Shown here: positions 50,601-58,464 of the stretch, one piece after another
Numbering within the stretch: position 1 is the stretch's first letter
Layout of the letters: the number at the start of each line of letters is the position of its first letter
NCBI GenBank assembly: GCA_963802945.1
Contig: CAWDKY010000028.1
Location: 128,001 to 192,000, forward strand
Reading direction: 5' to 3'
DNA: 64,000 bases
From: an uncultured delta proteobacterium
GTDB lineage: Bacteria; Desulfobacterota; RBG-13-43-22
Program-made: the position numbers and the translations under genes
Notes under the pieces: model-generated
The model's database searches: none
What the model was told of the DNA's origin: nothing
Seen by the model: the letters and a program-made list of their open reading frames with translations, nothing else

Positions 50601-51205
50601 CTGATTTCGGCGATGACATCTCCGACCCGTAAAAGATTCTGTTGGGTCAAGTCCAATTTCCGCAGGGTCTCATTCTTTTTGCTCTTATATTTGGCAATGC
50701 CGGCCGCTTCTTCGATCCAGTAACGACGATCCTCAGGCTTGGAATCGATAATGGCCCCGATCCGTCCCTGTTCAACCACTGAATAGGCCTTGCTTCCAAC
50801 CCCGGTATCCATGAATAAGTGGGTTATATCTTTAAGCCGGCATGGTTTATTATTAATGGTGTATTCGCTTTCTCCGTCCCGAAACAACCGGCGGGTGATG
50901 ACCACTTCTTTGAAATCGGCATACTCCTGCGGAATGGAACCGTTGTCATTGTCCAGCACCAGGGAAACCTCGGCCATGCCCACGGAGGATTTTCCATTGG
51001 ATCCGGCAAAGATCACATCATCCATTCCCTTCCCGCGAAGCTGCTTGGGACTTTGCTCGCCCATGACCCATTTGACGGCATCCACAATGTTGCTCTTTCC
51101 GCATCCATTGGGACCCACGACTCCGCTTATTCCTTTCGGAAAAGAGACTATTGTCTTTTCTGGAAAGGATTTAAACCCATTAAGTTCTAATCTTTTAAGT
51201 TTCAC
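47633..51205 (-). CDS. smc: Chromosome segregation protein SMC
   Basis: GPNGCGKS, long coiled coils, hinge, LSGGE, LDEID. Confidence 0.97.
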   Translation of the reverse strand: MKLKRLELNGFKSFPEKTIVSFPKGISGVVGPNGCGKSNIVDAVKWVMGEQSPKQLRGKGMDDVIFAGSNGKSSVGMAEVSLVLDNDNGSIPQEYADFKEVVITRRLFRDGESEYTINNKPCRLKDITHLFMDTGVGSKAYSVVEQGRIGAIIDSKPEDRRYWIEEAAGIAKYKSKKNETLRKLDLTQQNLLRVGDVIAEIRRQMNSLYRQAKKAERYKEIRKQSRAVELVLLAKEYQSLLEGKVQKEEEFGRQQGQTDEFRDECQSHETSLEQLQTELLGLEKQLKEKQEQFYRQKADLEKQEAQIQQYHNELKNIETEAVEIEREVQETEQWIIENETTEKTLAKEVSSFTQTLAREEEGVLKREQSLEESKKKLTKSQEQIEQTKDFLVTKLTELTKVRNMRAGLVKLQEDRQRRIIRQGEEKAQLLARLDFLNISIQEAEIKLVAKRESLRQAIEKIAQAQQQKIDAGKTQKKLEDELRDLEQASKQDQAQIRNLQEIRDNFQSYQNGVRALLQADWAKDSSPSPMFRQVLVEGLETEPGCETAVEAALGEALQALMIQDPVWAVKGIGFLKNREQGKASFLPLNIHLPSDGITSRYWEERGLIPLLSKISVQEELRPWLEVLLGSFVLVPDLTQGLEVWKNNSSRVCIVTLEGDLIDSKGIISGGSSRKPESGLLFQKNLIHRLEINVKEWQEKINLKQEMIRTIETDLSEQIKQIKALEDGKREEEEQILELEKRIIGHQEETKPMQRRLQLLILEEEEYRTQEEDQALEEQALSRQDETLNREIEGLRKDIQDKDGEIHILEGKLEQERQSLTLTYTQLSALKEKGEHIGKEWERLKESLFERQTRRKRLREKILTGNQIQAGLIEKVALGEKAAKNLLVKVDNLEAQIQTANQTWDKMIKQKEDRETLLKETRGFLNEAEQQENDLRMELAQTQMKIDHLKERTLEQSGLTPEEAVSHYLKGDEDLEALTIKRREFKEKLEQIGEVNLTALEEYNAFKERYDFYHTQEEDLLKSMDALKRAIQKINLTSKELFLSTFKVIQEKMDEVFPVLFGGGTAKLSLTDEDDPLESGVDIMVHPPGKRVTSMSLLSGGEKALTALALLFSTYLVKPSPFCLLDEIDAFLDEANIERFKNLVQSIVRDSQIILITHNRRIMEMADTLYGVTMEQPGISKLVSVRLDTIQ

Positions 51206-51329
51206 TTGAAAATATCTCCCCTGTTAATAAAGAAAACCTAATCCCGTGGCTGGTTTTATCTAAACCACTATCTCTTATTAGAAACTTTAATCCAATTGTA
51301 ATAAAAAAAATCATTTTGTAAAGAAAAAA

Positions 51330-51375
51330 ATACTATATGAGGGACTTATTAAAAAAAATATACAATATATAGTGG
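51330..51375. promoter_or_regulatory. Probable NrdR box with a weaker tandem partner
   Basis: ATACAATATATAGTGG at 51360-51375 matches acaCwAtATaTwGtgt at 14/16; half-match ATACTATATGAGGGAC starts 30 bp before. Confidence 0.6.
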
Positions 51376-51612
51376 GTTAGACTTCCCTAAAGAATCCTGG
51401 ACCTTTCCCCTAAAACCAATAAATTCGATAATCTTCACATCTGCTTTTTATAGCCTTTTTTAATAGATAGTCTGAGTTGGCCGTAAAACGGCGGGATTCC
51501 AGGTTTTAGATTGGGTGATTCATTGATTTTATTTAATAGTTAGTGTATCCTGTAAACAAAAAAACGGATTTATCGGTCTTGGCTGGAAAAACCCCAAATC
51601 AGAGGAGGGAGT

Positions 51613-51909
51613 ATGGCGCTTTTTAATGGATGGAAGGGAAATATTTTAGGAGGATTGGCAATCGGGATCGGAGCCTCGGTGGTTGGACCGGTGGTGAAAC
51701 CCATCTTGGCTACCGTCGCTAAACCCCTGACCAAGGCGGCTATCAAAGGCGGCTATTTACTTTATGAAAAAGGGAAAGAAACCTTGGCCGAAGTGCAAGA
51801 GGTAGTTGAAGATCTGGTCGCCGAGACCAAGGCTGAAATGGAAGAGGTGCAAGAAGCCCCATCTGTTCTGGTGGATTCCGAACCCGCGGCTCAGCCCAAA
51901 GCCGAATAA
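51613..51909 (+). CDS. Small GXXXG membrane protein (DUF5132-like)
   Basis: Strong SD; GGLAIGIG, AKPLTKAAIKGG, EDLVAETKAE. Confidence 0.7.
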   Translation: MALFNGWKGNILGGLAIGIGASVVGPVVKPILATVAKPLTKAAIKGGYLLYEKGKETLAEVQEVVEDLVAETKAEMEEVQEAPSVLVDSEPAAQPKAE

Positions 51910-51918
51910 GGTCATATC

Positions 51919-52419
51919 ATGTTTGATTTTCCTGAAGATACTTATGTCAGTCATGCCTCTCAAGGAAGGCTGCGTTTAAGAATACCTTCGAAAAAAAGGG
52001 ATGCCGCCTTTTTTGCCCAACTTCAAGCGGTCCTTTCCTCTATTCCAGGCCTTGATCAAATCAAAGTAAACCCCTTGAGCGGCAGTCTCCTCATCCTCCA
52101 TAGCGAACTTCCCGAGGAAATGGCCTCGTTTGTTAAAACCTTGGCCGGTCTCTCCCCAAAAAGTAATTCCACGGGTAAACCAAACAGCATTTATCAGAGG
52201 TTTACAGGGACATTTCGTCAAGTAAATACCCAAATACAAGGATTTACTAAGGGTGAATTGGATATCCCGACGTTAAGTTTTATTGCCCTTTTAGTCGTGG
52301 GAATCTACCAGATCAGTCGGAAAAATTTCACTGCCCCGGCCTGGTACACGGCTTTTTGGTATGCCTTAAATATTTTTTTACAATCTAAGGAACGATCATG
52401 GTCAAGAAACAGGACTTAA
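51919..52419 (+). CDS. HMA_2-like domain plus C-terminal membrane segment
   Basis: SHASQGRLRLRI...VNPLSGSLLILH; C-terminal GIYQI...PAWYTAFWYA. Confidence 0.72.
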   Translation: MFDFPEDTYVSHASQGRLRLRIPSKKRDAAFFAQLQAVLSSIPGLDQIKVNPLSGSLLILHSELPEEMASFVKTLAGLSPKSNSTGKPNSIYQRFTGTFRQVNTQIQGFTKGELDIPTLSFIALLVVGIYQISRKNFTAPAWYTAFWYALNIFLQSKERSWSRNRT

Positions 52420-52469
52420 ATAAAAAGTTACCTCTACCCGCTAAGCAACCAGCAAAAAGGAGAACGAAT

Positions 52470-53126
52470 ATGCCCAACAAACAAGAACCCAAAAGCCCTG
52501 CCCAAGGCCCGGGCATCGGCAAGGTTGGAACGAGCGTCAAAGATGGAGTGGTCAGCAGCCTTAAGGGAATCAATGAGATCGAAGCAGAAATAGTGACTTT
52601 GGTTAGAAACACCGTTTCCACTACCTTGCGGACCACCGGTTCTTTGGCCGGCGAAAGTTTAAACGTCGCCAAAGAAGTGATTAAGGGGGCCATCCAGGGC
52701 ACCGAAGAAGTGGGCACAGGTCTTATCCTGAGCACAAAAAGCGTTGCCAAGGGAATGATCATGGGCATCAGTGATGTAGGTGGAGATGTGGTCGACATGG
52801 CCAATCAAACCGTCAAAGGGGCCGTCAAAGGCGCTTCCGAAATTGGAGCCGATGTGGGCCTGGTAGCCAGAAGGACGGTAGACGGCGTCATTGAAGCCAC
52901 CAAAGAGATCGGGGGAAATGTGGAAGAGGTCGCTAAGGTGGCTGTCGGCGGGGCCATAGAAGCAGCCGGGACCATTGGGACTATGGCCGTCCGCTCGGTA
53001 AAGGATATGTTGGTCGGGGTGGCCGAAGGGGTTAAAGAAGTGGCCTCCAATTTGGTTCTCAAAACCAAATCGGGCCAAGCTCCGGAAATTAACTCCCGGC
53101 CCAAGGGTGGAAAAGGGAAAGCCTAA
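52470..53126 (+). CDS. Hypothetical protein with tandem 22-residue amphipathic repeats
   Basis: SD AAGGAG before ATG at 52470; at least six gap-free 22-aa units. Confidence 0.75.
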   Translation: MPNKQEPKSPAQGPGIGKVGTSVKDGVVSSLKGINEIEAEIVTLVRNTVSTTLRTTGSLAGESLNVAKEVIKGAIQGTEEVGTGLILSTKSVAKGMIMGISDVGGDVVDMANQTVKGAVKGASEIGADVGLVARRTVDGVIEATKEIGGNVEEVAKVAVGGAIEAAGTIGTMAVRSVKDMLVGVAEGVKEVASNLVLKTKSGQAPEINSRPKGGKGKA

Positions 53127-53424
53127 CATTTGATCCGGTCGATTCATGTCGCGGTAGAAGGCAGTGTCCGTTTTCGGGTTTTGCCTTACCTTAATTGTTG
53201 TCTCACTTATGCGGTGTTCAATAATAATCGTGCCCCTGTTTTTTCTTGCTGGTTTAATAGCCATGGCACTGAAGGAAAGAAAAGAAACAAAACTGGACGA
53301 GGCAAAGAAAGCCCCCCTGTTACCGGTGTAACGAAGGAAAGCACGATTCCAAAGCAGAAGTAGCTTCATTTAGAAGTGGCATCAGTCTGAAAATGTCAAA
53401 CAGCGGCGAACGGCAACTGAGGAG

Positions 53425-53994
53425 CTAACCGTTGGGCTGAGAAATCGGTGCAGGCTGGTGGCTGGGATGCAGCTTTACGAAGGAATCAAAAGCCAGCCAG
53501 AGGAAGACCCAACCTGGGACTTGTTCGAATCTAAGACCGCTTCGTAGTATAGTCCACACCCCCACCCCAACAAAGGCCAAGGGAAGGGCTATTTTGAGGT
53601 TGATATTGACTCCCGTCATCTGGGATAAACGCTTGTTCAAGTCCTCTACAGCTCCGACGAAAGTCAATGGAGCTTCGCTCTTACCATTCGTCGAAAGTGA
53701 TGCATCGATAGATGGTGCCTCGGACAGATTTCCAAAAATTACATCCATATCTTCAAATACCTGACGGATCTCTGACACGTTGTGCTGTTGTGGATTATAG
53801 TTGACGGTGACGCTCCCGGTAGCAGCGTTTACATTCACCTTATCAATGGCGTCATGCTTCCCCAAATGTTCATTAATACGGTTCAACACAGATGGATGCC
53901 TGCTCTCTGGGCTGAGTTTGATCCGCAACCGGCCCGGAACATGGCTCGCCACTCGAGCCTGGTGAACTTGATGCGGTTTCTGAGGATTCACCAT
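53425..53994 (-). CDS. HMA_2-like domain plus C-terminal membrane segment
   Basis: SHVPGRLRIKL...VNAATGSVTVNY; LPLAFVGVGVW...PGWVFLWLAF. Confidence 0.72.
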   Translation of the reverse strand: MVNPQKPHQVHQARVASHVPGRLRIKLSPESRHPSVLNRINEHLGKHDAIDKVNVNAATGSVTVNYNPQQHNVSEIRQVFEDMDVIFGNLSEAPSIDASLSTNGKSEAPLTFVGAVEDLNKRLSQMTGVNINLKIALPLAFVGVGVWTILRSGLRFEQVPGWVFLWLAFDSFVKLHPSHQPAPISQPNG

Positions 53995-54135
53995 TGTCTT
54001 CCTCCAAGCAAATCAAGCGAGTTAGGTTTTAAATCTACCCTGGATTCTCCTTCATGTGGTTTCAATTGCATTTTCTTTATACCATTTATCATCGATGATT
54101 TCAAACGGTAATCCTTGTTTCCCAACGACTTGGTT

Positions 54136-54165
54136 GACCAACAAGTTATTCTAAAGGTTCTGTCT
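54136..54165 (-). other. attI-like site, copy B
   Basis: CCAACAAGTTATTCTA at 54138-54153 is identical to 58915-58930 at the head of the cassette array. Confidence 0.5.
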
Positions 54166-54222
54166 GACTCTACACCCTAAATACTTTATTAAGGTCTCTA
54201 TAAAAAAAACTTACATTGTCTA

Positions 54223-54450
54223 TTAGAAAAAATTTTTCGTTTTTATCATGGCTATATTCGGAATTGGTTTTAATATTAAGAGGATCGTAGGTAAAGGGAA
54301 TGCTGATGGATTGGATGGATCTTTTGAAACATGGATCTGGGCCATAAATCTCCTTAAGAACCTGGAGAGAGTTTTACCAATACTGATATTATGACAAGGT
54401 TAGCATAACCGTGTAATTTGTCAATAAAATTCTCAGAGAAGAAATCAATT
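54223..54450 (-). repeat. Promoter plus small ORF module, copy B
   Basis: About 170 bp similar to 60321-60495; TTGACA-16-TAACCT, SD AAGGAG, ORF MAQIHVSKDPSNPS at 54345. Confidence 0.8.
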
Positions 54451-54879
54451 TAGTTAGGGGATGAAGGAAAAGATTATAACGTGTCTATTGGGGATTGGGT
54501 CGCACAAAAAATTGCTTAATAATTTTTTTTAAAAGGTCAGTCTGATCTTCCCCCAGTATAACGGACAATTGATTAGGGATTAAAAAATTACACAGCTCAT
54601 AAAATTAAGTATGCTTTCTCCGGAATTTATGAAAACTTGAAAAGGAATGGTCAGGGAATTGGCAGCCGTACTGAATGGAACAACGAATGGGGATGGATCC
54701 GTATTCCAGAAGAATCCCCTTCAGACCTTGAAAAATACACCCCCGTGACTGCTTCGAAAATTTCTGGCAACAGGCAAGTCCCGATCGCTACTTCCCTCAG
54801 GTTAAAAAGAACGGAGTAGCTGCCGTTCCCAAGCAAAAGGAAATCCGACCGGAACAAATTATTCCAATGGAAGAAGATT

Positions 54880-55383
54880 TTAAAAAATTTTAAAGGAACT
54901 AAAACAAGAATAAACCCTCAACATTTCCTTCAATTGCTCAACACGCGGCTCAGTGGGAGCCGGGTTTTTCGGCGATCCACGGCAGCCGATGGTTAGCGTT
55001 CTATTTGCTACGATCCGTGTATGGGCGCGTTGGTGCTCCGGTGAATTGCTCTTGTTATCTCTTAACTTGTTCAGATTGTCTTTTGCTTCTGGATTGATGT
55101 CTAATTCAAACTGTAGTTCTTTGCAGGGAAAATCAGCACATTCAATGCAGGAATTGTACTCCCTCTCGACGCAACATTTACGCATTTTACATAAATTGCG
55201 GCAATTAAATGAAAGCCTTTTACCTGCTCTACAACCATCGCAGATTACATACTCAGGTTTTACATCAGTACGATACAACTTCGACAAATTTTCAGCGACT
55301 CTTACTAATTCTTCATCATTTCCTGATTGGGTTGCATGGTAGCTATCACATTTCGAACAGTCTATTCCGCAATAAGCAATCAT
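54880..55383 (-). CDS. DUF3795-like Cys-rich cassette protein; ORF reads through the damaged attC
   Basis: IAYCGIDCSKC, CDGC, C..RKCC, CIECADFPC. Confidence 0.8.
   Translation of the reverse strand: MIAYCGIDCSKCDSYHATQSGNDEELVRVAENLSKLYRTDVKPEYVICDGCRAGKRLSFNCRNLCKMRKCCVEREYNSCIECADFPCKELQFELDINPEAKDNLNKLRDNKSNSPEHQRAHTRIVANRTLTIGCRGSPKNPAPTEPRVEQLKEMLRVYSCFSSFKIF
54936..54998 (-). mobile_element. Integron attC site 4
   Basis: CGCTAAC ... imperfect palindrome ... GTTGAGC, 63 bp, similar to attC1. Confidence 0.85.
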
Positions 55384-55402
55384 TTAGTTCTCCATATTAT
55401 TA

Positions 55403-55459
55403 AGATAACACTAAAAGTCAGCGGTGGCTTCAGCCATCCGCTGGAATTTGTAGTTAGAA
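55403..55459 (-). mobile_element. Integron attC site 3
   Basis: TTCTAAC...CAGCGGATGGCTGAAGCCACCGCTG...GTTATCT, 57 bp. Confidence 0.85.
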
Positions 55460-55591
55460 GATCACAGTTAGTTTTAATGTACTTTTAAGGGGTCAAATAT
55501 TTTGCGTTGACAATTCTTCCTTCATTTACTTTTTAATATTCGTCTATAGAAAAGATTTGACATCTTTCTGCCCCTCTCTTTTCCCTGACCT

Positions 55592-57094
55592 TTATCCATT
55601 CTGTGCTATCAATGTATCTAAGTAATTCTTTAGGCCATCAAGAATACCAAGCTGTAAAGCTAAAAAGTCTTCCTTTCCAAGCAGTTGTATACTTAACTTT
55701 CCAGAATATTTCATAACTGTTTTAGTGAGCTGTTTCTCTTTAGCCCTAATTTTAGACGCCTTTCCATGATCCAAATCATGGCGTAGATCTATACGCAACG
55801 CAACTATATCTCTAACCATGTCTGGCAAAGTAGATCCCAATCTTGTACCAGACCCACTCCCCTCATAGATGATTTTATAAAGCGCATCAATAAATTGCCC
55901 ATATAATTCCTGGTTCTTTAAGGTACTTTCAATAAGACGTAACCCTTTTGCAGTTTCATTTGTCGCCTTGAATAGGTCCTCACCATTTTTACTACGATAT
56001 ACCTCATTACACTTGTAAACTAAGTCTCCTACGCGGGTGGCCAAGGATTGAATTTGCTTTTCGATAGATTTTTCCATCGATCCAGTTTTCAAAAAGCATT
56101 GTGCATAAGAGGGATCAAAGAGGATTAGTTTCTTGACCAGGATTTCATTTCTCTTTTCAATTGATTCACGATCTGCAGTACCATAGTTAATGGCCTGCTG
56201 GTATGCTATCAAGTCACCGTCAGTTGCCAGTTTTCCCTTCTCAACTTCAGATCTCAAGTTATGAGAGAATTTTTCAAAAAATTCCCCCGACCTTTTTTCC
56301 ATTTTCCTTAATTGTCCTGAATCCTGGATTTGAGCTGAAAGATAGCAAAAGGAGACAATTGACGCTCGATTTCTTAAGGTGCTCGTTTTAGCTGGGAACA
56401 TCTTATTCATTGAATCAAACAATGATTTCAATTTCTTACCGAGAGTAGATCCCGATGAAAAGTTGATATTCTCCCTGAACATCTTCTCTAGTTCTGCAAA
56501 CCTCATGCGTGGCTGTATGCCCTTCAAAATTAAAAATGCAACCTTTGCACAAGTATCAAAGTGGGCGTACCTTGTGTCTTGGGCCGCAACTTTTTCTTTA
56601 AAAAAAGTATGCTTGGTGAGTTCACGAAGAAAATCCCGCAAGCCACTCTCAATTGCATTAAGTTTTTCAGGAGTATTGAGAGCTGTTCCCAGTTGCAGTC
56701 GTTGAAAAAGCTCCTTGACTTCATCATCGGTTGCGTCTTCGATTTCTTCAACCTGTAAAACAAAGTCGTCGAATTTATCTGATATAGCGGGCTTTAGATC
56801 CTCATACAGAGGGCCACCATAAGATTTTTGTGATTCCTGAGACAAAGGAATTTTATTGTCGAAAAATTCCCAGATTGTGATTAACCGTTGTTGACCATCA
56901 ACACATTCAAAAGTTTCGTCTCCAACCTTACGAAAGTAAAGGACAGGCACGTGCCATTCTTTAAGGATTGTATCTAAAAATTTTTGTTTCTTTTTTGGAG
57001 GCCAAACCGCACCACGCTGCCAGTCAGGTATCTCAATTCTATCTCGTCGCTTATAAAGCTTATCCAATGCTCGAGGACGAAGCTCCATTCTCAT
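55592..57094 (-). CDS. DUF262 (GmrS/ParB-like) protein with possible C-terminal HEPN-like domain
   Basis: PDWQRGAVW and VDGQQRL motifs; C-terminal RIDLRH fits RX4H. Confidence 0.8.
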   Translation of the reverse strand: MRMELRPRALDKLYKRRDRIEIPDWQRGAVWPPKKKQKFLDTILKEWHVPVLYFRKVGDETFECVDGQQRLITIWEFFDNKIPLSQESQKSYGGPLYEDLKPAISDKFDDFVLQVEEIEDATDDEVKELFQRLQLGTALNTPEKLNAIESGLRDFLRELTKHTFFKEKVAAQDTRYAHFDTCAKVAFLILKGIQPRMRFAELEKMFRENINFSSGSTLGKKLKSLFDSMNKMFPAKTSTLRNRASIVSFCYLSAQIQDSGQLRKMEKRSGEFFEKFSHNLRSEVEKGKLATDGDLIAYQQAINYGTADRESIEKRNEILVKKLILFDPSYAQCFLKTGSMEKSIEKQIQSLATRVGDLVYKCNEVYRSKNGEDLFKATNETAKGLRLIESTLKNQELYGQFIDALYKIIYEGSGSGTRLGSTLPDMVRDIVALRIDLRHDLDHGKASKIRAKEKQLTKTVMKYSGKLSIQLLGKEDFLALQLGILDGLKNYLDTLIAQNG

Positions 57095-57107
57095 ATTAAT
57101 ATTCTCC

Positions 57108-57164
57108 TTCTAAAGACAAAATCAGCGGCGGCTGTAAGATGTCTACTGGATTGCTTTGTTGGGC
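57108..57164 (-). mobile_element. Integron attC site 2 with mutated crossover (TTT for GTT)
   Basis: GCCCAAC ... TTTAGAA, 57 bp, similar to attC3. Confidence 0.75.
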
Positions 57165-57220
57165 TATTCTTGTCTTCCCTTTGTCCGCCGCCAATGGCTA
57201 ACCCCACCGCCTTCGTATTT

Positions 57221-57670
57221 TTAGGAGGTGGAAAGCGATTTCCTTTTGAAAACAGCAATGATCAATGTTGCAAGCATTGATGATATAACACCCAAGATGA
57301 AAGAAATTCCTCTATCAAGCCATAACTTTCTTGCCGAAACCTCCGATTGCAATCTAAAAATTGCTTCAATAGTTTTCCGATCAGCCTCGATAACAGGCTT
57401 AATCTTCTTTTCTTCTTCTTTTAATTCTTTTATGGCTTTCTCCGACTCGACTAAATTTCTCTTCTGGTCGTTGACAAATGTTTGTAGTCTCGCCAAATTG
57501 TCACTCACGTTATCTAATGTTTTTAATTGGGAGGAATATTCAAATTCGTGTTTAGATTTCTTAAGTACATATTTATCATGAATGAGAACGGGTACGCTAG
57601 CAAGCAAACCGATCACAAGTGCAATGATCACGTGTCCTGGAAAATATTTTAGAAAACCTCTATCAACCAT
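57221..57670 (-). CDS. Cassette protein, TM-coiled coil-TM
   Basis: Two hydrophobic segments flanking a heptad-rich region; SD GAGGT. Confidence 0.7.
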   Translation of the reverse strand: MVDRGFLKYFPGHVIIALVIGLLASVPVLIHDKYVLKKSKHEFEYSSQLKTLDNVSDNLARLQTFVNDQKRNLVESEKAIKELKEEEKKIKPVIEADRKTIEAIFRLQSEVSARKLWLDRGISFILGVISSMLATLIIAVFKRKSLSTS

Positions 57671-57690
57671 TTGACGACCTCACTATCTGT

Positions 57691-57754
57691 GCCCAACATC
57701 ACGTGTCACCGGGAGCCGGATTTATCGGCGATCCGGTGCAACCGCTTGTTGGTA
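57691..57754 (-). mobile_element. Integron attC site 1
   Basis: TACCAAC...CACCGGATCGCCGATAAATCCGGCTCCCGGTG...GTTGGGC, 64 bp. Confidence 0.88.
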
Positions 57755-58464
57755 TGTTTATACTTTTTAAGTTCCGAAAAGTTCGCTATCCTTCCTTGTG
57801 TCTTCTGGGTGCCATAAACGATGTTAATGCCATACCTATTTGAAAGTTCTTGTCTAATTACTTCGGCATGACCTGACGGCACCCCTGTAAAGACTATCAT
57901 AGGCGAAAAATGAATACCAGTTCTGTCGATCATTTTCTTTCTTGATATGAAAGCAGGCAGAAACTCCAGTACAAGGCCAGTGAATCCAAACAAGGCCTCG
58001 GGAAATGGGACTAAATGTTTAACCTCAACAAATGAGAAAAGTTGTTGGTTGCCCACATAGCTGTGTCGCCTTCCGTTCTTAAGTTTGACGGTAACCGCCC
58101 CATTCACAGCACATACAGCAACATCCGGCGTATAATATAGATGTTCGTTATGTGCAGATTGAATTTTGGTATTGTGAAAGATACATATGGGTTTCTTGGA
58201 AGCCAGGTCTGTAGCTTCAAAATAAGAAAAATTATCTATCAAGCCTGTCGAGACTATCTTATAACGAAAGGACTTCCTAGGGCCTAGGTTTTTGGCGGTC
58301 AAATTGAATCCTCGGTCTTGGTAATAGGCTACAACTGAGTTGTAGGTGGCTACTTCTACCAGGCTGGAAATTCGTTTGGCATTTGTTCTGCGAAAGTAAC
58401 CGTTTTTCCTTATGAATTCTTTCGCTTGATCTATTAGCGTTTTCCGGTCAATCCACGGTTGCAT
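57706..58464 (-). CDS. Cassette protein, putative PD-(D/E)XK nuclease
   Basis: E..TYN helix, YTPDVAV, FVEVKH; stop lies inside attC1. Confidence 0.6.
   Translation of the reverse strand: MQPWIDRKTLIDQAKEFIRKNGYFRRTNAKRISSLVEVATYNSVVAYYQDRGFNLTAKNLGPRKSFRYKIVSTGLIDNFSYFEATDLASKKPICIFHNTKIQSAHNEHLYYTPDVAVCAVNGAVTVKLKNGRRHSYVGNQQLFSFVEVKHLVPFPEALFGFTGLVLEFLPAFISRKKMIDRTGIHFSPMIVFTGVPSGHAEVIRQELSNRYGINIVYGTQKTQGRIANFSELKKYKHTNKRLHRIADKSGSR

Follow-up and report, generated by a model that had tools for sequence, protein, structure and literature searches.

Ferrosomes illustrate that a P-type pump and a few tiny membrane proteins can build an organelle in bacteria. According to the description given in a preprint on them (bioRxiv 10.1101/2020.01.10.902569), the pump FezB is a P1B-6 ATPase with the transmembrane (TM) motifs D[Y/F]SCA and HNxxT, FezC consists of an HMA domain followed by two membrane helices, and FezA is a hydrophobic GxxxG protein. 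An “R-rich” motif, RxR, at the N-terminus is found in both FezB and FezC, and the Fez proteins are enriched with isolated ferrosomes (Grant et al., bioRxiv 10.1101/2020.01.10.902569). CoBaHMA domains (Pfam HMA_2, PF19991) are defined by the absence of CxxC, by a His that is conserved ahead of strand b1 and by conserved basic residues in b1/b2 (PMC8890360). In Microcystis aeruginosa PCC 7806, two DUF5132 genes and two CoBaHMA-hairpin genes are reported beside ccyA and the Ca2+/H+ exchanger gene cax, and these genes are co-expressed (bioRxiv 10.1101/2024.07.07.602159). Here we analyse a cassette of four small genes encoding a DUF5132 protein, two CoBaHMA-hairpin proteins and a repeat protein, located in a 64,000-nucleotide stretch of DNA, the window, of an uncultured delta proteobacterium of the phylum Desulfobacterota (GenBank assembly GCA_963802945.1, contig CAWDKY010000028.1, positions 128,001 to 192,000).

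The original prediction, made from the nucleotide sequence, was a ferrosome-like accessory cluster without a P1B-ATPase, representing either a split or relict fez locus or a related, undescribed membrane-compartment module. We find that the cassette arose from a longer parent operon by losing everything past approximately codon 17 of the pump gene and that it gained a convergent second CoBaHMA/hairpin gene. At a probability of roughly 0.6, we favour the explanation that it is a relocated pump-less derivative of this operon, the accessory proteins of which act in trans with a P-type pump of the P2A class. The mobile, pump-less form of the operon is novel. A published description of the operon itself was not found in the papers on DUF5132 and CoBaHMA that were consulted, and the CoBaHMA paper (Proteins 2024) may mention ATPase fusions.

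Loss of the pump gene and relocation of the cassette

The cassette spans 2.6 kb (51522..54143) and is inserted here relative to congeners. Three of its genes form a trio on the forward strand, encoding the DUF5132 protein (51613..51909, +; 98 aa), the CoBaHMA-hairpin protein HMA2a (51919..52419, +; 166 aa) and the repeat protein REP (52398..53126, +; 242 aa). The trio is followed by a relic of the 5' end of an ATPase gene (53130..53180, +; approximately 17 codons), while the gene of the second CoBaHMA-hairpin protein, HMA2b (53425..53994, -; 189 aa), is convergent with the trio. The metagenome-assembled genome (MAG; G000) comprises 4.37 Mb in 72 contigs, with an estimated completeness of 100% and an estimated contamination of 6.7%; the window lies on its contig C28. 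A scan of species-representative genomes yielded 244 related loci, 80 of which were kept (coded L0xx/L1xx), mostly from Nitrospirota and Thermodesulfobacteriota MAGs. These 80 loci were picked via REP, and the counts given below are therefore silent on DUF5132 and HMA_2 genes without REP. Pfam matches were accepted at 30 bits for HMA_2 (PF19991) and at 25 bits for DUF5132 (PF17195). The position of the ATPase was scored where at least 600 nt were available downstream (n=75), and that of DUF5132 plus HMA_2 where at least 1300 nt were available upstream (n=68).

The parent operon has the order DUF5132, HMA_2/hairpin, REP, CoBaHMA-fused P2A ATPase and a paralog of MetK. The ATPase directly follows REP in 66 of the 75 scorable loci, usually with tight spacing, DUF5132 and HMA_2 lie upstream of REP in 59/68, a recurrence of the trio's gene order that is far beyond chance, and MetK follows the ATPase in 57/66. 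Nine loci are without the ATPase; eight of these are solo REP genes and one (L022, from the congeneric genome G138) has the architecture of the window. The genome under study itself carries a fuller paralog on contig C30, in which the trio is followed by the ATPase and then MetK, and its trio proteins share 77–87% identity with those of the window in the same order and orientation. At the nucleotide level the window matches C30:25363-27045 with 83–88% identity. This similarity begins just upstream of DUF5132 and stops 50 nt into the ATPase open reading frame (ORF), at 53180, the position at which the comparison with a further copy on contig C15 stops as well. The relic reads MIRSIHVAVEGSVRFRV, the C30 ATPase opening with MVRTIHAAVKGRVRYRV. 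As the original prediction had stated, the window cluster contains no P-type ATPase gene, the relic being all that is left of it, and metK is absent too.

That a chimeric join at a repeat merely mimics a pump-less cluster is highly improbable. Besides the estimated contamination of the MAG, a 99%-identical copy at the start of C15 that extends into ATPase sequence would fit such an assembly artefact, and so would the matching public Logan contigs, which are 150–640 nt long: none of them bridges 53177-53264, and two have loose ends at 53177, where they diverge. Among the public sequencing runs with matching sequence no RNA run is listed, and the best DNA runs cover 0.23 of the sampled words. 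However, L022 matches window positions 51522-54143 with approximately 84–88% nucleotide identity, across the breakpoint and on through HMA2b, and the sequence downstream of the 53180 junction is as conserved in this comparison as the genes are. Because L022 originates from an independent MAG and spans the same breakpoint, the junction does not stem from faulty assembly; L022 is also the only one of the 75 scorable loci that shares the pump-less state of the trio.

The C15 copy (C15:1-3549, L016) is the third trio copy of the genome and is 98.96% identical to window positions 51060-53180, including 146 nt of smc. It continues into approximately 1 kb of frameshifted ATPase 5' sequence (approximately 79% identical to C30), to which the final 159 codons of metK are joined; their translation is 99% identical to the C30 MetK. 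This form is backed by one public contig (run X1, possibly the source sample). The C15 copy may represent either a third locus or a variant from another strain.

In the window, the cassette is neighboured by smc and a GmrSD-like gene. At the smc-adjacent site of G138 (L157), similarity to the window extends as far as 51521 and picks up again at 54628, whereas the G138 cassette L022 lies at another genomic site; it follows that the 2.6-kb cassette resides at different loci in two congeneric species. In none of the 13 other genomes of the genus were cassette proteins found within 1.5 kb of the 5' end of smc, and no transposase was found flanking the cassette in L022. REP is present in five of 12 other genomes of the genus, and the seven genus-level copies form a polytomy in the REP tree, which therefore gives no indication of whether the two pump-less copies group together. 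The cassette is bracketed by an imperfect, AT-rich direct repeat of 44 nt (73% identity; 51328-51371 and 54179-54222); the left copy of the repeat lies in intergenic sequence conserved across the genus, and the repeat may be a recombination footprint or chance.

Selection on the genes of the cassette was gauged from the ratio of non-synonymous to synonymous substitution rates (dN/dS). Pairwise values for the window genes against C30, L021, L022 and L023 range from 0.13 to 0.42 (DUF5132, 0.13–0.28), and between the window and L022 they amount to 0.215 for DUF5132, 0.324 for HMA2a, 0.233 for REP and 0.328 for HMA2b. These values, well below 1, argue against decay. We thus consider it very unlikely that the cassette is a non-functional relic, i.e., the leftovers of a duplicated operon that is being lost. 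The pump gene has been deleted, the C15 copy shows frank decay of both the ATPase and metK, and the patchy distribution of REP in the genus would also suit a relic; yet the four ORFs are full length, the low dN/dS extends to the comparison between the two pump-less cassettes, and the architecture has been kept in two species with about 87% nucleotide identity between the copies.

Further features accompany the cassette. The spacer between REP and HMA2b contains a hydrophobic small ORF (53164-53331, +; core 53209-53331), an approximately 40-aa version of which (MRCSIIIVPLFFLAGLIAMALKE...) persists in L022, even though the sequence upstream of it differs by 7 nt in length; this may be a single-TM micro-protein or chance. 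The 5' leader of DUF5132 contains a short hairpin, TCCGG-N6-CCGGA (approximately 51560-51590; also in L022, L023 and L024), the loop and stem of which vary among the four closest loci, the stem being weakened in the window (ATCGG...CTGGA). Rfam searches of window positions 50800-55000 and of the C30 locus revealed no riboswitch or other RNA family at E<=1, and scans for sigma-70 promoters and terminators gave no excess of sites over shuffled sequence. Downstream of the cassette, the stretch 54880-58464 (-) encodes a Cys-rich DUF3795 protein, a GmrSD_N/DUF262-type protein (55592-57094) and unannotated ORFs, and looks like a variable or defence-type region.

The parent operon, its pump and its phosphate-related neighbourhood

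The pieces of the C30 ATPase carry HMA_2, Cation_ATPase_N, E1-E2, Cation_ATPase, Hydrolase and Cation_ATPase_C domains as well as the motifs VPEGLP and DKTGT. For the intact pump ortholog in L023 (1066 aa), the best solved relatives are SPCA1 (1.5e-151), followed by Listeria LMCA1 and SERCA, and the best NCBIfam model is of the PMR1 type. Because of these motifs, relatives and this model, the pump is classified by sequence as P2A-type with an N-terminal CoBaHMA extension, and not as P1B.

On C30 the ATPase is distributed over three ORFs (C30:26995-30152; L013:11995-15152), owing to a 4-nt insertion at about C30:28995 and a 1-nt insertion at about 29770, the latter in a G/T homopolymer stretch; both are insertions relative to the intact genes of L023 and L024. 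The split is either an assembly error or decay, and an assembly error stays a possibility because an MgtA-like P-type ATPase gene on contig C37 also looks split. The pump genes of G301 and G229 are intact, and G138 contains an intact pump frame (1067 aa) alongside its pump-less cassette, which makes an action of the cassette in trans plausible.

The start of the C30 MetK gene (C30:30149-31360; L013:15149-16360) overlaps the ATPase stop by 4 nt. The protein is paralogous to another MetK of the genome (contig C25), with which it shares 41% identity. It passes the metK model, but in place of EQSPDI, GAGDQG and GDAGLTGRK, three conserved motifs of the aligned solved enzyme, it has EMNLRN, IKNQVT and IHSGLTGRK.

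A Pst, PhoU, PsiE or PhoB-like gene is found within 10 kb in 24 of the 37 loci with full flanks, the recurrent Pho neighbours being PstS, PstC/A, PstB, PhoU, PsiE and a PhoB-like regulator; the C30 operon itself sits among three pst operons, PhoU and PsiE. Other recurrent neighbours include PlsC- and GNAT-type acyltransferases, GT21, CorA, CDF, small Zn-ribbon and DUF3562-like proteins. A search of the window for the Pho box consensus with up to three mismatches gave 0 matches, although this consensus may not fit the phylum. The setting of the parent operon among phosphate-starvation genes makes it probable that a divalent cation is handled by the system in accordance with the phosphate status of the cell, and this cation is possibly kept in a membrane-bounded store.

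Upstream of the parent operon, TAGGCAAGTAATGAAAG occurs approximately 70–90 nt before DUF5132 in L026, L028, L039, L047, L052 and others, and its TAATGA core is present in 48/64 upstream regions. The motif may begin a tiny leader ORF (MKELMD...), and TGTTAC/ATGAA-like direct-repeat arrays are found further upstream. Solo REP paralogs (L067, L068, L082, L095, L033) repeatedly adjoin a membrane protein of the MntP family (PF02659), and an MntP-like gene also lies 1 kb past MetK on C30. Moreover, CoBaHMA-fused P1B ATPases with a CPC motif, which are not P1B-6, occur in L023 (9425-11635) as well as in L125 and L135, either a few kb away from the P2A operon or adjacent to genes resembling HMA2b. 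The pumps that CoBaHMA-hairpin proteins accompany thus belong to more than one class.

The cassette proteins and their possible role in trans

All four window proteins are devoid of cysteines. The DUF5132 protein (PF17195, E 4.5e-12, 46.3 bits), in which we recognise the small GXXXG protein of the original prediction, has a single hydrophobic stretch (residues 9–36) with two GxxxG motifs and an acidic C-terminal helix, and 17 columns are invariant in an alignment of 46 sequences. HMA2a matches HMA_2 (PF19991, E 8e-20, 71.8 bits) over positions 3–153 of the 154-position model, and HMA2b matches the same family (E 7.8e-11, 42.6 bits) and additionally HMA (E 1.5e-5). Each of the two contains three Trp residues and a C-terminal hydrophobic/aromatic segment and lacks CxxC, which bears out their earlier description as HMA_2-like proteins without CxxC and with Trp-bearing hydrophobic tails. 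A role of these HMA-like proteins as metal chaperones was considered and rejected because they contain no Cys at all.

HMA2a has the characteristics that define CoBaHMA, i.e., no CxxC, the His and the basic residues, as His12 is kept in at least 90% of 47 aligned sequences and Arg17 and Arg19 are invariant; the same alignment yields the conserved motif APAWYTAFWYALNIF. Its AlphaFold2 (AF2) model shows the topology b0-b1-a1-b2-b3-a2, after which come an amphipathic helix and a hairpin of two helices, with strands at residues 9–14, 17–21, 45–51 and 56–61 and helices at 29–40 and 66–76, for which the predicted local distance difference test (pLDDT) is approximately 78–92. An extra N-terminal strand b0 is thus added to the ferredoxin-like HMA core, in agreement with the CoBaHMA fold as it is described in the literature (PMC8890360; bioRxiv 10.1101/2024.07.07.602159). 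A Foldseek search with this model returned nothing at E<=0.001, and HMA and KipI-like chains were weak hits (E >= 0.011).

REP matched no Pfam or NCBIfam family, and no hydrophobic segment was found in it. The repeat of 22 residues stood up to analysis, the autocorrelation z value relative to 300 shuffles being 8.6 for lag 22 and 9.1 for lag 44. Tandem Repeats Finder detected no repeat in the DNA, so that the repeat exists at the protein level only. The AF2 model is a seven-helix alpha-solenoid (pLDDT 73, predicted template modelling score 0.63) with basic disordered tails, and among solved structures it comes closest to designed helical repeats (5cwb, E 8.5e-5). ESM Atlas matches fall into unnamed clusters only; 45 homologs were found in a set of 5.8 billion proteins, and of 1.84 billion cluster representatives 703 matched at E<=1e-3. 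Some REP homologs (P0001, P0003 and others) carry a C-terminal MucR/ROS zinc finger (PF05443), which adds a DNA-binding module to the solenoid.

According to our favoured explanation, the products of the cassette would function as accessory proteins, of which two would be anchored in the membrane and one would be soluble. The CoBaHMA domains, which are free of Cys and have a conserved His/Arg patch, would be held at the membrane by the aromatic helical hairpin, DUF5132 would insert into the membrane through its Gly-zipper segment, and the REP solenoid, having no hydrophobic segment, may serve as scaffold or coat. Together they would act in trans on the CoBaHMA-tagged Ca2+/Mn2+-type pump of the C30 operon copy, organising or regulating it, in an arrangement that would parallel FezC and FezA accompanying FezB in ferrosome clusters. 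A relocated pump-less copy that is present in two species with dN/dS well below 1 implies that the accessory proteins either act in trans or are of value without a pump of their own.

The second of these options corresponds to an alternative which we regard as possible, though rather unlikely: the trio and HMA2b might form a self-sufficient membrane module, for example one that binds anionic lipids or polyphosphate, or remodels or shapes membranes, to which the pump would only be a frequent neighbour. The genome's three trio copies are all intact, in contrast to the pump, which is split on C30, truncated on C15 and gone from the window, and the eight solo REP loci point in the same direction. 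CoBaHMA domains have also been hypothesised to bind anionic lipids (as cited from Gaschignard 2024). In metagenomes, homologs of HMA2b (51–52% identity) adjoin three tandem DUF5132 genes with no pump on the recovered 2.8–4.9 kb, but these contigs are too short to show that a pump is absent. The pump's position directly downstream in the majority of scorable loci, mostly at tight spacing, also speaks against independence, as do the CoBaHMA domain at the pump's own N-terminus and the coexistence of cassette and intact pump in G138.

A bolder version, to which we attach a still lower probability, is that the cassette is a minimal mobile, pump-independent “shell kit” of an undescribed prokaryotic membrane compartment, made up of the two CoBaHMA hairpin proteins together with the Gly-zipper protein and the solenoid as coat. 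Ca2+/Mn2+ and phosphate would be brought into this compartment by the parent operon under the control of phosphate status, as in a calcium-type counterpart of the ferrosome, and copies of the kit would move and persist without a pump of their own. The related, undescribed membrane-compartment module of the original prediction fits the evidence and is a candidate explanation.

Several observations weigh against our favoured explanation, that the cassette proteins act in trans with the P2A pump. As the pump gene on C30 is split, the cell may have no working pump for the cassette. The calcium-pump models score below their equivalog cut-offs, and the putative transported ion (Ca2+/Mn2+) is assigned from family resemblance only. 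No Pho genes are adjacent to the cassette in the window, and the upstream TAATGA motif is absent from the window as well as from C15, L021, L022 and L023. Furthermore, HMA2b is nearly confined to the genus, its ortholog being present only in G138 (87% identity), and the profile of DUF5132 aligns with a FezA-like GxxxG protein of 84 aa (L148) over just 18 columns with a probability of 16.6.

Comparison with ferrosomes and other known systems

To obtain a Fez comparator, 401 genomes of the phylum were searched with the CoBaHMA-P1B ATPase of L023 as query. The comparator (G297, L148) is a motif-defined cluster and not an experimentally studied operon. It contains an ATPase with the motifs DYSCG and HNACT and a CoBaHMA N-terminus, neighboured by a 187-aa HMA_2 plus hairpin protein (full-length HMA_2 match, 1.2e-41), the above-mentioned GxxxG protein of 84 aa, a further two HMA_2 proteins and a repressor of the DtxR type. 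The HMA2a profile aligns with the 187-aa FezC-like protein over 149 columns covering domain and hairpin (hhalign probability 99.0, E 8.1e-18), and HMA2b matches the same protein in BLASTP (2e-07). By its full-length homology, one of the two accessory types, the HMA_2/hairpin protein, is shared by descent with the fez-like cluster, while no homology is detectable between DUF5132 and the FezA-like GxxxG protein. The predicted similarity to Fez families holds for HMA2a and the FezC-like protein. The homologues co-occur strongly with each other, whereas in none of the 80 loci was the trio seen beside an ATPase with P1B-6 motifs.

These results leave little room for a true fez accessory locus serving a P1B-6 iron pump that is encoded elsewhere, an explanation which is close to refuted. 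A FezC-like HMA_2 plus hairpin protein and a small GxxxG protein are indeed present. However, no ORF of at least 300 aa in this genome, estimated to be complete, has both D[YF]SC[AG] and HNxxT. Its E1-E2 matches are CopA (CPC motif), KdpB (in a kdpABC set), two MgtA-like proteins, the P2A paralog and the C15 fragment. The suggestion of a split or relict fez locus was right in that the start of an ATPase gene is retained at 53130-53180, but this relic matches a P2A pump and not P1B-6, and the remaining genes are not decaying. The absence of a Fur box, noted earlier, was confirmed with up to three mismatches (0 matches in the window) for the E. coli-type consensus, which may not apply to this phylum. 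Neither Fur, DtxR nor Feo families were found among the 30 largest neighbour clusters of the related loci, of which the recurrent unidentified ones were scanned; the setting of these loci is one of Pho and not of iron genes. Lacking the defining pump, the cassette is not a fez cluster.

Compared with its parent operon, the cassette has lost pump and MetK, has added the convergent HMA2b, differs in its promoter region and has moved beside smc. The window provides a natural experiment, in which accessory genes were relocated without their pump in a form common to two species, and the four small genes provide a concrete set for asking whether CoBaHMA modules define a general class of pump-associated membrane domains or storage bodies.

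The parent pump aligns with SPCA/PMR1, LMCA1 and SERCA (8iww, 6zhf and 1iwo, among others) over the whole catalytic core and the 10-TM body. PEGLP in TM4 and N..E and N..SD in TM5/6, which we take to be the ion sites of the pump, are kept. The parent pump differs from these enzymes by an extra N-terminal CoBaHMA extension of approximately 140 aa. With the ccyA neighbourhood of Microcystis it is the pairing of DUF5132 and CoBaHMA-hairpin genes, side by side near a calcium transporter, that is shared, in Microcystis beside the marker gene for calcium carbonate. This neighbourhood belongs to a cyanobacterium, its transporter is a Ca2+/H+ exchanger and not a P2A ATPase, its marker is calcyanin, and neither REP nor a MetK paralog is mentioned in the published account as cited here (bioRxiv 10.1101/2024.07.07.602159).

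Finally, the likeness to fez clusters comprises an HMA-like domain with an RxR motif joined to a two-helix membrane anchor, a small hydrophobic GxxxG protein and, in the parent operon, a P-type ATPase with the same domain at its N-terminus. The differences are that the parent pump is P2A (VPEGLP, Cation_ATPase_N/_C) and not P1B-6, that the cassette itself is pump-less, that related loci lie in a Pho-gene context instead of one with Fur, DtxR or Feo, that DUF5132 shows no detectable relationship to the FezA-like protein, and that REP and the MetK paralog are additional genes of the parent operon. The ferrosome-like layout thereby extends to a different class of pumps, as a FezC-type CoBaHMA-hairpin protein also partners a P2A pump.

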